Shown: positions 8,605-17,294 of the stretch, piece after piece | Position numbering within the stretch: the first letter of the stretch is position 1 | Layout of the letters: every line of letters starts with the position of its first letter | DNA from: an uncultured Desulfobacter sp. | Lineage (GTDB): Bacteria; Desulfobacterota; Desulfobacteria; Desulfobacterales; Desulfobacteraceae | Length of the DNA: 64,000 bases | NCBI GenBank assembly: GCA_963665095.1 | Contig: OY762069.1 | Coordinates: forward strand, 3,776,001 to 3,840,000 | Reading direction: 5' to 3' | The notes under the pieces: model-generated | Told to the model about the DNA's origin: nothing | Seen by the model: only the letters and a program-made list of their open reading frames with translations | Databases searched by the model: none | Translations under genes and position numbers: made by a program

Positions 8605-9432
8605 TTATCTGGTTGGCGACGGTTTCAGTGAAAAAAGCTCTATGAAAAGTTTCTCATCCAGTTGCGGCAGCTCTCTTTGAACGCCCACTTCAAGCAGTTC
8701 TGCCGACATATTATTGAGAACCCGTAAGTTTCCTGTACAGTGCTCTACCAAAGCGGTAATTAAAGGTTTTGTCATGAGTTGAGGCGCTCCGGCCTGGTTT
8801 AGGCAATGCGCTATATAATCCAACAACTCTTCCCGGGTATAAGGCTCCAATTTTAACCGGAACCGGAGTCGACTGCCCAGGGCTACCAATGCACTGGTTC
8901 TGAACCGTTCCGGCAGCCGGGTATCACCACAGATAATGGTGGTCAATAAATTCTGGGAGTCAAAATCCATACTGTTGAGCAACCGAAGCTCATTCAGGCA
9001 TCCCGTAAGCATTTCCTGAGCCTCATCAATGAGCAGGACGGGCCTGAACAGGGTTGTTTTTATATGATTTTTCCATCGTTGCCGGAGATCTTTGAACCCT
9101 CCGTAACGGTTGGCCGGACTCAAATTGACACCAAACAATGTCCCCATTTCCCGATAAAAATCGGCTACACTGCTTTGGGGCCGCTCCATAACGCCGACAA
9201 CGACTTCATCAAGCTTGCCAAGCTGATGGGCAATCGCCTGCAGTATCTTGGATTTACCAAGACCGGGTTCTCCGGCAATCAATGCAAATCCACCGTTCAT
9301 GATCATATTTTCAAGGCGGATAATAAACGCGTCCATCCGGGGCGGATGCCATAATGAGTCCACAGGGATGTTTGGTAAAAAAGGATTGTACTTCAATCCA
9401 TAATAAGCCAGTAATCGTTTGCTGTTCATCAC
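8605..9432 (-). CDS. ExeA-family AAA ATPase (transposition helper)
   Basis: GEPGLGKS Walker A, LLIDEAQ Walker B; GGAGG RBS and overlap with the transposase stop. Confidence 0.88.
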   Translation of the reverse strand: MMNSKRLLAYYGLKYNPFLPNIPVDSLWHPPRMDAFIIRLENMIMNGGFALIAGEPGLGKSKILQAIAHQLGKLDEVVVGVMERPQSSVADFYREMGTLFGVNLSPANRYGGFKDLRQRWKNHIKTTLFRPVLLIDEAQEMLTGCLNELRLLNSMDFDSQNLLTTIICGDTRLPERFRTSALVALGSRLRFRLKLEPYTREELLDYIAHCLNQAGAPQLMTKPLITALVEHCTGNLRVLNNMSAELLEVGVQRELPQLDEKLFIELFSLKPSPTR

Positions 9433-10874
9433 CTTTCCTCCATTGGCAAGTAGGCACAAGGCATTCCGGTTGCTGCATAATCGGACAAGAGCTTTTTAAG
9501 CAGGGCCGGTTCTAATCCGGACAGGGTTTCATGGCCGGGGTTGATTTCATCCGGTGTGGATCTGATACGACGGATTGCTGAAGCATTCTTTGTCTTGTCC
9601 TGGGGATAAATTGCGGCAAGCTTATTTCCGGTTCGTTTGTCTATCAGCCAGGCAACCGATTTATCCCAGGAGCAGAAACAGACATGAAGGCGCTGGATAT
9701 GATTAAACCGTGAAGGGATTTCAAACCGGATGCCCATCAAAGAGATGGTACCATCGGATAGACGCTGTTTTCTGGATTCACAGGCTGTAAACGAAAATTG
9801 AAGCTGTTCAGGTTCCGGTGCAGGACGGGACACATCCTTGCCGTCAAGGGCGCATTGCAATGGCGACATATGAATTTCATCATGGGTTGACTTGTTGTAT
9901 TCCATCTCGATCCAGGCCTGGGAGACCTGGTTTAAATATACCAGGGTCAAGGAATCCATCCGGCTCAGCATGGCGATCAGCCGGCCTTCAAGTGTACCCC
10001 AAAAGGCTTCCTGTTTCCCATTTTGATAGGGCGAGTACGGCAACGTGGTCTCATGGCTGACGCCCAATCGTTTAAGTCCATTGACGGTTTCATGAGCAAT
10101 CATGGCAGAACCATTATCTGTCATCAAAGCTCTGGGAAGCCCTCTTTTGTAAAACGCCTGGGACAAGCCGTGGATCAACACCTCTGCCGTTTCATTCAAA
10201 TACCATTGAATATGACAACACAGACGGGAGCGGTCATCAAGAATGCACAATGCCTTGGGCGTATGCCACTGACCTTTTTCGTCCACCACGCGCCTGCTGC
10301 ATTCGTGAAAGTCCAGATGCCATAATTCATGGATATTTTCGGCTTCATAACCGCGGACTTCATACGTTTCAAATCGTTTAGACGCTGATTTCTGTCCGGA
10401 TGTTTGATTTTTGTTATTGGAAGCCTTTTTTCTCCAACCCCGTTCAACCATACGCCTTCTCACACTTGCATAGGACGGCGGATTCTCACACAGGCCCTGT
10501 TCAGCGATTTCAGCTGCCAGGTTGTCGCAATGAAGCTGATAGCTCCATTGCGGATAAGTGTTGTACTGGACACCAAGAAGGCGGATCAATTCAGCATTCA
10601 ATGCTGTGGATTTGCCCATATCTGAACGGACTTTACGGCCCAGTGCCAGAATTGGGTCCTGACAATTTTTTGCCCTGTAATACCAGGCCTCAATGGTGGA
10701 AAAATGAAAACAGGTCGGTTTGTTCGTCACAGGATGAGAATAGATTTGACCTGCGAGCCGGGTCAGTTCAATTTGCAATTCTCCCTTTGCCGGAGGGCGT
10801 GCCAGTAAACCACCGATAACCGAAAAGCGAAATAATGCCCACAGGTCTGCCGGGTGTTGTGTTTTACCACTCAT
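9429..10874 (-). CDS. DDE integrase/transposase (rve core, Mu/IS481-like)
   Basis: LWHLDF, ILDDRSR, TDNGSA and QNGKQEAFW motifs. Confidence 0.9.
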   Translation of the reverse strand: MSGKTQHPADLWALFRFSVIGGLLARPPAKGELQIELTRLAGQIYSHPVTNKPTCFHFSTIEAWYYRAKNCQDPILALGRKVRSDMGKSTALNAELIRLLGVQYNTYPQWSYQLHCDNLAAEIAEQGLCENPPSYASVRRRMVERGWRKKASNNKNQTSGQKSASKRFETYEVRGYEAENIHELWHLDFHECSRRVVDEKGQWHTPKALCILDDRSRLCCHIQWYLNETAEVLIHGLSQAFYKRGLPRALMTDNGSAMIAHETVNGLKRLGVSHETTLPYSPYQNGKQEAFWGTLEGRLIAMLSRMDSLTLVYLNQVSQAWIEMEYNKSTHDEIHMSPLQCALDGKDVSRPAPEPEQLQFSFTACESRKQRLSDGTISLMGIRFEIPSRFNHIQRLHVCFCSWDKSVAWLIDKRTGNKLAAIYPQDKTKNASAIRRIRSTPDEINPGHETLSGLEPALLKKLLSDYAATGMPCAYLPMEER

Positions 10875-13440: not shown

Positions 13441-13589
13441 AGGGGTCCTGGGGTCACCCATTAAAGGCCGGGTCAAGAGAAAAAACACCTCCCCGTGAAA
13501 AAAATTCCTTTTTTTCTTGACCCTCGCACTATTTGTAATTTTTCAAAATCGACAGCTTTTTTCCCTGTCCGCGCCTGTTATTTCGTCGT

Positions 13590-13871
13590 GTGGTTCACGG
13601 AAATGATCCGCACCAGTCACCCATCAGGTTCAAGGCAGATGTGTACCAGGCAAAATGCGTGGTACACGGCCCCTGGTCCGTTCGGACCCCAGAAAATCTT
13701 CAGTGCCGTACCGTGGCTAATTGTTTGTTTTCAAATCTTATGGTTGTTAACCAACCCCTTACAGGCTCACGGCACAGGCGAATCAGGATATAAAAAACTG
13801 TGTGGCTGCAGCAGTTGCCAATCAAACCTAATGGTTCATACCAACCCCTGAAATGGTTCGCTGCTGCAGCC
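13590..13871 (-). ncRNA. Putative IS110 bridge/seekRNA with two target-binding loops and one donor-binding loop
   Basis: Stem-enclosed loops contain guides matching the reconstructed target (GGGGT / TCAAACCT) and the donor junction (TCACCCAT); boundaries are approximate. Confidence 0.75.
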
Positions 13872-13876
13872 TTAAT

Positions 13877-14893
13877 TTACCGGCAAAAAAGACCTACCTC
13901 ATCAAAGGGGATCTGATCCCGCATGATATAGTAGGATGCACGGCAAATTTTGTTGCTCAACGCTTTGGTGGCTACAATCCCGTTTCGTTTGGCATTTTTG
14001 CGCTGGAAAAATTTTCTTGCTTCCGGGCAATACCTTTTTGCAAAATTTGCAGCTTCTACATATGCCCAGGCAAGATACTTGTTTCCGTTTTTTGTATTAT
14101 TTCTTCCTTTCTTCTTCCCATTGGATATTTTTTCACTTTTAACACAACGGCAATAGGAAGAATAGCATCCTACCTTGGCAAACCGTTTGATCTCGCCAAC
14201 CTCAAGCATGATAGTCAGTGCCAGAATATTGCCGACACCCGGTATTGTTTTAAGCATTTCAAAGGCTTTTTTCATTTTAACCTGGGAAAGCGCCTGTCGT
14301 TCAATCGCTTTGATGGAATTACTCAGGTCCTTGATGGTCCTGATCTGAAGTGCTGCCATGAACCCCTGATTTGAATCAAACATTTGATGAACCTCAGGTT
14401 CCTTCAATTTTTTGATCGCATTACCTGACATTTTTATGCCAAGTTGCCTTGTTACCATGCTTTGTAAACTCAAAATTTGAGTTGTTCTTTGCTGCACAAA
14501 CAAAAGTCTTCGGCGTAAAATATCCCGGACAGCTCTTTCTTCCCGAGGATAAATGTAGCCTTCCGGCAGAATGTTTAACCGCCTCATGTGTGCGAGCCAG
14601 AAGGAGTCCCACTTGTCGTCGGTATACTTGAGCCCTTCGTACTGTTGAATGGCTGACGGGTTGGCCAGATGAACTCTATAGCCGTTTTCCTCAAGGCCAT
14701 CAACCAGCCAGTACCAGTTGTAGGTTGATTCTACCACGATACCTTCCAGATTTTGTCTGAACGGTTCCAGAATTTGAAGTACATCCGGCAAATTATTGTC
14801 AAGCCGTTTTCCAAATAACCGTTTGTCATTTTCATCAATGATTCCTACGTAATTATTGCTTGAATGCAAATCAATTCCAGCGTAGAGTTTCAT
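13877..14893 (-). CDS. IS110 family DEDD recombinase/transposase
   Basis: YAGIDLH, VVESTYNW, KYTDDKWDS, TIPGVG and SNGKKKG motifs; GGAGG RBS. Confidence 0.95.
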   Translation of the reverse strand: MKLYAGIDLHSSNNYVGIIDENDKRLFGKRLDNNLPDVLQILEPFRQNLEGIVVESTYNWYWLVDGLEENGYRVHLANPSAIQQYEGLKYTDDKWDSFWLAHMRRLNILPEGYIYPREERAVRDILRRRLLFVQQRTTQILSLQSMVTRQLGIKMSGNAIKKLKEPEVHQMFDSNQGFMAALQIRTIKDLSNSIKAIERQALSQVKMKKAFEMLKTIPGVGNILALTIMLEVGEIKRFAKVGCYSSYCRCVKSEKISNGKKKGRNNTKNGNKYLAWAYVEAANFAKRYCPEARKFFQRKNAKRNGIVATKALSNKICRASYYIMRDQIPFDEVGLFCR

Positions 14894-15134
14894 TTGGCAC
14901 CTCCTAAATCCAAAGTGTTCTTGTTGAACTGGTACTATAGCAATCGTTGCTATAGTTAGGGAGGTGTCACTTTTTTTTCTAATTTGCGAGGACCTGCCAT
15001 CATACGATTCTATGAAAAATATCTGTGATGACAGGTAGCTTTCGTTCCTGCTTTCGCCTGGCCTTTATATGATTATCAAACCTTGATTATTGATTACGCA
15101 AGATAAGTGTTACTGGCCAAAATCCTGTCATGCT

Positions 15135-16310: not shown

Positions 16311-16550
16311 TCAATTTTCGATAGATTTCATTAATTCAGGGACCGTTTTAGCGGATAGAATTTTTCCCTTCAAAGCCTTCAAGAGGTTGATATCCTGGAT
16401 GGTTTTAATCTTTGTTATAATTGTTTTACAGTCATCACTGTCACCAAACTTGATGCTGACAGCCAACTCAATGCTTTCCTGGGCCAATTCAAGTCCCTGT
16501 TCAAGTCCTTGAGCATGTCCTTCTTTCCTTAATTTTTCAGCCAATGTCAT
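16311..16550 (-). CDS. Putative intragenic small protein (RpnS-like antitoxin), in frame with Rpn
   Basis: AGGAGG-7nt-ATG (MTLAEKLRKEG...) inside the rpn gene. Confidence 0.65.
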   Translation of the reverse strand: MTLAEKLRKEGHAQGLEQGLELAQESIELAVSIKFGDSDDCKTIITKIKTIQDINLLKALKGKILSAKTVPELMKSIEN

Positions 16551-17294
16551 GATGATACCTCCTTTTTCCTCAGACAACGTATTTGACACGATGGTGTGGA
16601 TTTTTTCTGTTGTAATATCCTCAACGTTGCTGAATAAATATTTTATCAGGGATTCAAAATATTGCAATCCTGTTTCCTGTTCGGACAGGTCCTTTAACAG
16701 CGCAAAAATATTTGGCAATTTGTCTTCGATGTCCGGGTCAAATATATGTTTGAACAGCAGCAGGACAACTCTTGCCGTAATTGTTCCCTTGATCTGATCA
16801 TCAGTATATCTGGATAAATCATACAGAATAAACTCAAAATTCGGGATGTAATCTGCAAGCTTGTTAACCGGTCCGTCAAAGAGCGAAGTAAAATGTTTAT
16901 CCACTGTCCATTTATCCTTGCCGTGATATAGAACCAGAGGGATTACAATGGGCAGTTTCCTGCTTCTGGATTGTTTGAACCCAAGCCGCCAAATTTTAAC
17001 CATATACTCAACAAGCTGGAGATGGATCACACTGTCCGAATAGCTTTTATGCTCAAAAAGAAAGTATACAAACCCTGTGGCATCTCCGATCCTGACTTTG
17101 TAAAGCATGTCTGAATAATAATCTTTCAGGTCCTTTTCAATAAAGGAGTCTTTGCATATTTCAAGGGTATCCAGCCGAACAAGTTCAATGACTGATGGCG
17201 GCAGGTAATTTTCCAGGAAGGATCTGGCATTGCGCAGGTTGCTCCAGGTTTCCCGGAACAGCTTGTCATGGGAATGGTACAGTTTGTTTTCCAT
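16311..17294 (-). CDS. Rpn/YhgA-like PD-(D/E)XK nuclease
   Basis: HDKLF, SDMLY, LFEHKS and IPLVLYHG motifs; C-terminal EG..QGLEQG. Confidence 0.9.
   Translation of the reverse strand: MENKLYHSHDKLFRETWSNLRNARSFLENYLPPSVIELVRLDTLEICKDSFIEKDLKDYYSDMLYKVRIGDATGFVYFLFEHKSYSDSVIHLQLVEYMVKIWRLGFKQSRSRKLPIVIPLVLYHGKDKWTVDKHFTSLFDGPVNKLADYIPNFEFILYDLSRYTDDQIKGTITARVVLLLFKHIFDPDIEDKLPNIFALLKDLSEQETGLQYFESLIKYLFSNVEDITTEKIHTIVSNTLSEEKGGIIMTLAEKLRKEGHAQGLEQGLELAQESIELAVSIKFGDSDDCKTIITKIKTIQDINLLKALKGKILSAKTVPELMKSIEN

Follow-up and report, generated by a model that had tools for sequence, protein, structure and literature searches.

Why does a single predicted guide RNA carry two loops of the target-binding type, and which of them decides where the element inserts? 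The question is raised by an IS110-family insertion sequence in a 64,000-nucleotide stretch of an uncultured Desulfobacter genome (contig OY762069.1 of assembly GCA_963665095.1; this whole stretch is called the window, and its numbering is used throughout). A preliminary description of the locus read the noncoding end of the element as a guide in which a duplicated, reprogrammed target loop gives one recombinase two target specificities. By our comparison of homologous loci, it is a genuine and conserved variant, built of three modules, of a known system; the specificity proposed for the second loop is unsupported, and the finding is broader than the one first claimed.

The whole element occupies positions 13454 to 15075 on the minus strand (1,622 bp, including one copy of the shared TCA), as defined by an empty site and a second copy. 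A contig of run X14 omits exactly 13454 to 15075 (1,622 bases), joining 13453 to 15076, and the genome contains a second, identical 1,622-bp copy whose outer flanks are unrelated. Both comparisons revealed no target duplication on insertion and a short shared core. Read in the orientation of the element, AGGTT-TG-ACCCC is the insertion site of both full copies, and AGGTT is the site of all four copies in the Desulfobacter genome and a congener. The second copy interrupts a 371-codon open stretch, evidence that the 12 bp of the site are sufficient within an open frame. On the plus strand of the window, the right target half-site GGGG lies at 13450 to 13453 and the core plus left target half-site TCAAACCT at 15076 to 15083, both taken from the sequence and the empty-site contig. 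Sub-terminal inverted repeats were read from the sequence at 13460 to 13472 on the right (plus strand; outward, a 3-bp extension and then the core) and at 15057 to 15070 on the left (plus strand; outward, an extension of about 7 bp and then the core); they share a TAAAGGCC core with 10 of 11 positions matching. The right end measures about 420 bp versus about 180 bp for the left end and holds a long noncoding region downstream of the transposase gene. This downstream region and the sub-terminal inverted repeats make the layout IS1111-like.

The core is shorter than initially thought. The preliminary description had given it as TCA; in four homologs (L031, L032, L035, and L036), the left junction reads TGA and the right one TGT. 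The core therefore comprises no more than TG (CA on the plus strand), which rules out a 3-nt TCA core. Four others (L250, L251, L256, and L259) read GG at the left junction versus TG at the right, and loop 1 of L256 likewise reads GG; from these junctions, the strictly shared core may be a single G. No circle junction was present among the listed joints of run X14, which consists of contigs only. The same run contains, on contigs of another organism, a high-depth joint from window position 13474 to 15080 that connects the last 24 bp of the right end to the left flank. Five homologs (L010, L021, L038, L071, and L074) have the last 16 to 20 bp of the right end tandemly duplicated.

The transposase gene of the element encodes a 338-residue IS110-family RNA-guided recombinase (13877 to 14893, minus strand) with the PF01548 plus PF02371 architecture and an NF033542 score of 178 bits against a cut-off of 140. 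Alignment to the structures 8wt6 and 9t56 places D8, E55, D93, D96, and S257 at the catalytic positions of IS621, and these residues are invariant in all eight rows of alignment A1. The IS1111 C-terminal motif GL-P----S(t)G is absent, and the recombinase reads CRCVKSEKISNG there. None of the matches listed (60 of 168) was named IS1111, ISEc11, ISPa11, or ISKpn4. A plasmid homolog with 46% identity is annotated as ISGsu4 family, and the ISGsu4 protein given in a supplement has the same SSYCR...S.GKK motif as the enzyme here (PMC11208160 and PMC11187229). We classify the element as IS1111-like, in the ISGsu4 branch of IS110 elements.

Three modules on the minus strand make up the predicted guide RNA, and all follow a common design: a closing pair, a right guide, a UGG...CC hairpin (branched in the donor loop), a left guide, UG, two bases, and UGG. 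Loop 1 (module A, 13804 to 13871, minus strand) is a stand-alone target-binding loop and the likely insertion guide; it matches both real sites and covaries with the flanks. Its stem pairs 13804 to 13814 with 13861 to 13871 and encloses GGGGU (13844 to 13848), AGGUU-UG (13823 to 13829), and the donor handshake AU (13821 to 13822). Loop 2 (module B, 13705 to 13779, minus strand) is a second target-type loop with a relaxed guide and no handshake. It has a stem of 13705 to 13717 with 13764 to 13779, GGGGU at 13754 to 13758, AGAUU-UG at 13732 to 13738, and AA at 13730 to 13731; it is conserved, and its core-adjacent base tracks that of loop 1. The branched donor-binding loop (module D, 13605 to 13704, minus strand) contains GAUUUUC (13692 to 13698), AUGGGUGA (13617 to 13624), AUGGG-UG (13618 to 13624), and the target handshake AC (13616 to 13617); its guide and handshake covary with donor and target, and the same covariation is seen in a sister clade. 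A long-range helix, predicted by RNAalifold and by a single-sequence fold, pairs 13778 to 13784 with 13605 to 13611 and thereby closes loop 2 and the donor loop into a single folded domain (13605 to 13784, minus strand).

Much of the preliminary description of this RNA held. Every motif that it named was found at its position, and the proposal of a bridge/seekRNA-type guide, with a target-programming loop 1 and a branched donor region, agrees with our comparisons. Loop 1 matches the actual insertion site on both strands, as well as the site of the second copy, and the left guide of the donor loop equals the donor end in 86 of 95 rows (in 87 of 95, its handshake pair is identical to the two leading bases of the target). 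The GAUUUUC stretch is present, although its proposed role as a donor guide is weakly supported: its one mismatch is constant (63 rows), and it is unchanged in 15 rows with a changed donor. Covariation of the noncoding end, which had been suggested as a check, was evident in the stems. Across 48 homologs, chosen from 67 within the length limit, the 46 proposed pairs were 96.6% paired and 27 had two-sided changes, levels reached in 0 of 500 shuffles; the counted structure was derived from the same alignment, so these statistics lean towards the structure, and related sequences inflate such tests. Two-sided changes were found in all 8 pairs of the loop 1 stem, in 9 of the 12 pairs of the loop 2 stem, and in 2 of the 5 pairs of the long-range helix, where 97.5% of cells were paired. 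RNAalifold also joined the two guides of loop 1, which are G-U rich; we treated these pairs as artefacts and excluded them from the counted structure. The loop motif occurs twice in the window compared to a mean of 0.00 in 100 shuffles, and fold z-scores were -2.70 for the region, -3.6 for loop 1, and -2.8 for loop 2. Among homologs, loop 1 is a separate hairpin 22 to 453 nt upstream of the domain formed by loop 2 and the donor loop. Rfam gave no meaningful match (one at E 0.25, inside the gene), and a scan for promoters and terminators returned chance-level counts (5 versus 3.0 and 3 versus 1.9). Four metatranscriptome runs contained only contigs of relatives (mostly 85 to 95% alike); because gene and end were covered alike, these contigs say nothing on an RNA.

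The three-module layout is widespread. Modules were called with profile HMMs on 172 homolog loci with downstream DNA, the sources of which include 80 of about 6,100 matching metagenome stretches. Loop 1, loop 2, and the donor loop were all called at 119 of the 172 loci and two copies of loop 1 at 10; the others are cut at contig ends, distant, or deleted. Among the 112 loci that reach the right end, a set that includes four duplicate loci and several copies of one element and whose counts are thus not independent, 97 carry the layout (49 to 100% identity), 91 with three modules and 6 with four. The canonical architecture of one target loop plus one donor loop was therefore not what we encountered, as two target-type loops are present at 91 of these 112 loci and three at 6. 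Twelve of the remaining 15 were inspected: seven have both loops (L027, L030 to L033, L035, and L036), L040 to L042 and L094 have deletions, and L134 has both loops with a donor loop that could not be parsed. A sister clade at about 30% identity has two target-type loops and a donor loop in 17 of 17 whole-enzyme loci (19 examined); there, the right guide is NAAC and matches TG-TT flanks, and the donor loop follows the donor end. By eye, a second loop was not seen in four Rhizobiales/Sphingobium relatives (27 to 30% identity), and none of 60 candidate viral contigs encodes a relative.

This distribution bears on the origin of loop 2, which the preliminary description had taken for a duplicated target loop. 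Its scaffold is unlike that of loop 1 and persists in homologs with as little as about 30% protein identity, which excludes a recent tandem duplication of loop 1. From the spread among homologs and the 17 of 17 sister-clade loci, loop 2 is therefore an old feature of the branch. At seven Scalindua-type loci (L084, L086 to L090, and L096), a further, degenerate hairpin lies upstream of loop 1 and may be a decayed copy of it.

To ask which loop picks the insertion site, we compared each guide with the DNA flanking the element at 96 single-loop-1 loci (four duplicates dropped). The left flank fit loop 1 better at 51 loci and loop 2 better at 4, with 41 ties. At the 62 loci with unlike left guides, the flank is identical to loop 1 in 30 cases and to loop 2 in 2. 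At the right flank (84 loci, three with interrupted ends dropped), loop 1 was the better match at 24 and loop 2 at 6; there were 5 ties, and the guides were identical at 49. Only 1 of the 22 loci that combine AGAUU in loop 2 with a different loop 1 sits at AGATT. On a transposase tree made with FastTree, whose starred branches are less dependable, changes in the flank go with loop 1 at position -2 (7.7 of 20 pairs, p 0.008) and at -3 (10.1 of 17, p 0.002) and do not go with loop 2 at -2 (1.3 of 20). We conclude from these flanks that insertion sites follow loop 1. The second specificity assigned to loop 2 and the second flank class predicted from it among homologs were not borne out by the same counts. 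Within the genome, GGGGTCAAATCT has 0 occurrences, and the one AGATT-TG-ACCC site is empty.

Pairing rules point in the same direction. At loop 2's site, the G of loop 1 can form a G·T wobble with the T, and the A of loop 2 faces C at the real site; because loop 1 wobbles onto loop 2's site, loop 2 would add no target range. Sites favoring loop 2 do occur: it fits better than loop 1 at L029, L079, L110, and L144 and is the sole exact fit at three AGATC sites of elements with two loop 1 copies, and it is exact where loop 1 guides are not at five sites (L079, L144, L131, and two G560 sites). Most such sites are within reach of loop 1 through one wobble (G·T or U·G). A single homolog, L027 (38% identity), has a right flank that matches the loop 1 guide at 8 of 8 positions and a left flank closer to loop 2.

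What, then, is loop 2 retained for? Its base next to the core equals that of loop 1 at 112 of 121 loci, and on the transposase tree, this base changes with that of loop 1 (9.9 of 10 independent pairs, p 0.002); at -2, loop 2 tracks loop 1 in only 1.7 of 11 pairs, and covariation at -4, at -5, and for G at -1 was not significant. The right guide of loop 2 differs by clade, being GGGGU here, GAC-type in betaproteobacterial homologs, and NAAC in 17 of 17 sister-clade loci; loop 2 tracks mainly the right target half and the core-adjacent base. These patterns support the view that loop 2 is conserved and selected to pair with target-like DNA. The preliminary description had made its case depend on a conserved loop 2 whose guides covary with targets; loop 2 is indeed kept across homologs and the sister clade, and its core-adjacent base and right guide do change with the target. 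We also considered loop 2 as a donor guide, which is excluded by a donor that stays constant while loop 2 changes with the target.

The two target-type loops differ most clearly at the handshake. AU is present in loop 1 at 120 of 121 loci versus 5 of 121 for loop 2, and the donor starts with AT in 96 of 96. The corresponding positions of loop 2 read UA in 44, UG in 25, AA in 22, CA in 12, and UC in 10 of the 121 loci. By eye, the loop 1 pair changes along with the donor in L035 and L036 (AG and AA) and does not in L030 and L031. Loop 2 could be parsed at 15 sister-clade loci, 4 of which have AU; in this clade, it matches the left flank at little beyond -1. The handshake guides of loop 1 and of the donor loop correspond to those described for IS621 (PMC11208158).

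To account for these data, we tentatively favor, at somewhat less than even confidence, a division of labor in which the choice of insertion site falls to loop 1, and loop 2 together with the donor loop reads the flanks of the element itself for circle formation. The three-module RNA would be made from the right end and bound by the recombinase. Loop 1 would act with the donor loop in insertion, where its AU handshake would pull in the donor strand as in IS621. Loop 2, folded with the donor loop, would likely read the element's own flanks and lead to copy-out as a circle, and its lack of a handshake would remove a brake on excision. Such a role fits loop 2 because it reads flanks loosely, has no donor handshake, and is tethered to the donor loop. 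For IS621, handshake pairing after strand exchange is reported to favor insertion and suppress excision (PMC13626964), and circle formation by ISEc11 (IS1111) requires target sequence on both flanks (PMC11187229). Counting against this role, the bases at the handshake positions of loop 2 are mostly neutral rather than matched to the post-excision target; the donor loop retains an insertion-type handshake, and the IS621 donor loop alone can drive excision (10.64898/2026.08.31.748434 and PMC13626964); and the sister clade is less clear, given the AU in 4 of 15 loci. Some of the same data, namely a separable loop 1 hairpin and a loop 2 joined with the donor loop as one unit, would also fit a second insertion step, in which the new target read by loop 1 is read again by loop 2, at the second junction or strand. 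Loop 2 retains its right-target guide better than its left, and a precedent exists in CazIS110-1, in which an RNA with only the target loop makes one junction and the full bridge RNA the other (10.1101/2025.10.25.684509). However, at loci with unlike right guides, the right flank agrees with loop 1 more often than with loop 2 (24 to 6), and loop 2 has no insertion-promoting donor handshake; we thus consider a second step unlikely.

Less likely still is the original model, in which loop 2 provides an independent insertion specificity of its own and so extends the target range over repeat variants. Its guide differs from that of loop 1 at 62 of 96 loci, the genome contains a 37-copy GGGGTC-type repeat, and loop 2 fits best at four loci (L029, L079, L110, and L144) and alone matches the three AGATC sites exactly. 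Yet exact matches number 30 for loop 1 and 2 for loop 2, with 1 of 22 loci at AGATT; the exceptions lie within the wobble reach of loop 1, and loop 2 mismatches the real site. With the genomic AGATT-TG-ACCC site empty and the sister-clade loop 2 fitting the left flank little beyond -1, this model appears improbable. We give slightly less credit still to a loop 2 that pairs with no DNA, whether as a structural or recombinase-binding arm or as a relic of gene conversion. Positions -2 and -3 are nearly fixed (U in 111 and A in 96 of 121), true mismatches to the flank are more common for loop 2 (47 of 96 loci) than for loop 1 (21 of 96), and the core of about 25 nt that is common to both loops could convert. 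Against conversion, tracking at -1 without -2 is unlike a conversion tract, the guides switch with the target across clades that have entirely different hairpins, and the two bases after the core remain different between the loops.

A second insertion specificity does seem to have arisen in relatives, by another route. Two copies of loop 1 with different guides were found at ten of the 172 profile-searched loci and in one more element (L228 to L231), and this state requires at least 5 changes on the transposase tree. G565 has four copies, two at AGGTT (exact for the first loop 1 copy) and two at AGACC (one wobble for the second copy and three for the first). Copies in G562 that share one left end, by which they were assigned, include some at AGGTT and AGATC, exact for the first and second loop 1 copies, respectively; L233 has no loop 1 match above 40 bits. 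L056 matches the second loop 1 copy only and L130 the first only. Scoring of 15 sites of such elements left two without a good fit to any loop, and loop 2 gave the best fit at four. In these 11 relatives, the duplication and reprogramming of loop 1 has probably produced a genuine second specificity for insertion. The multiplexed guide proposed in the preliminary description is thus likely in relatives through duplication of loop 1, and not here through loop 2. Multiplexed bridge editing could take these relatives as a template from nature, and they illustrate how a new target can be gained while the old one is kept. It is also possible, and we propose it with some reserve, that a deep IS110 branch uses a modular three-loop guide in which direction is set by separate loops and the insertion loop is an expandable, reprogrammable cassette that yields natural multiplexed arrays. 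G561 has, beside L060, three copies that lack both target loops (L040 to L042). One of the three occupies a site that matches the second loop 1 copy of L060 exactly, a hint of movement in trans within this genome.

Comparison with characterized elements sets the three-module guide in context. The element resembles IS621 and ISCro4 (8wt6 and 9t56) in its DEDD plus Tnp recombinase with aligned catalytic residues (PMC11208160, PMC11208158, and PMC13626964), in loops that pair with both target and donor strands around a 2-nt core, and in handshake dinucleotides, even to the same AU against donor AT. It differs in having the RNA downstream of the gene, two target-type loops rather than one, a branched donor loop joined to loop 2 in one domain, and a short left guide (5 nt plus the core). 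It also has SN at the catalytic serine, whereas IS621 and ISCro4 have SG. ISEc11, ISPa11, and ISKpn4 share with it a downstream noncoding region, sub-terminal inverted repeats, an enzyme of 330 to 350 residues, and a top-strand match located 5' of the bottom-strand match, and their short seekRNAs (82 to 96 nt) resemble loop 1 (68 nt); their long RNAs are 148 to 172 nt with one target loop described, in contrast to about 270 nt and two loops here (PMC11187229). Unlike in those elements, the enzyme has no GL-P----S(t)G and belongs to another branch. It groups with ISGsu4, ISGsu5, ISShfr7, and ISShwo5 through the 46%-identical ISGsu4-family homolog and the SSYCR...S.GKK motif, a grouping made at the protein level, and relatives in this branch at about 30% identity have the same three modules. 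Direct transfer by CazIS110-1 likewise involves a target-loop-only RNA that works beside a two-loop bridge RNA; that short RNA derives from the same loop by truncation (10.1101/2025.10.25.684509), whereas here the module is separately encoded and separately programmed.

The accessible text of the literature contained no description of two target loops in one natural guide, including in PMC13604230, PMC12288879, 10.1101/2025.05.14.653916, 10.64898/2026.09.15.751765, and 10.64898/2026.08.14.744561; the deviant structures in Fig. S12 of 10.64898/2026.10.21.760802 may bear on novelty. Nor did a search covering text, with figures and subscription papers outside its scope, find a guide RNA description for the ISGsu4 branch. 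How IS110/IS1111 elements with guides tuned for insertion exit is disputed, with cut-out, copy-out, half-match, and direct transfer all under discussion. Since a target loop with a handshake and one without it occur in the same RNA, each step should be separately switchable, making the question of exit directly testable.

The genomic surroundings suggest a repetitive target. AGRYY-TG-ACCCC occurs ten times in the genome and a related GGGGTC repeat 37 times, so the target resembles a small repeat family, and outer flanks are shared among homologs. These target repeats may be REP-type sequences. Several partial copies lie elsewhere in the genome. A relic at G000:C1:3402022-3402481 has lost both target loops and ends at the DNA of the left donor guide (ATGGGTG), after which comes ACCCC; it looks as though the DNA that codes for the guide took the role of the right end. 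A third copy (L012, G000:C1:4586877-4587783) is 5'-truncated with an intact right end, one change in the right guide of loop 2, and then ACCCC. A solo 30-bp right end, also followed by ACCCC, is found at G000:C1:6303841-6303870. The left end of a related element lies at TACTC-TG, within the 37-copy GGGGTCAGAGTAA repeat family (G000:C1:6041178-6041620). In the window, the element is hosted by an Rhs/YD-repeat region with other mobile genes (2876 to 23148); its neighbors include an IS481-like integrase (9429 to 10874) with an adjoining open reading frame (8605 to 9459) and an Rpn-type protein (16311 to 17294).
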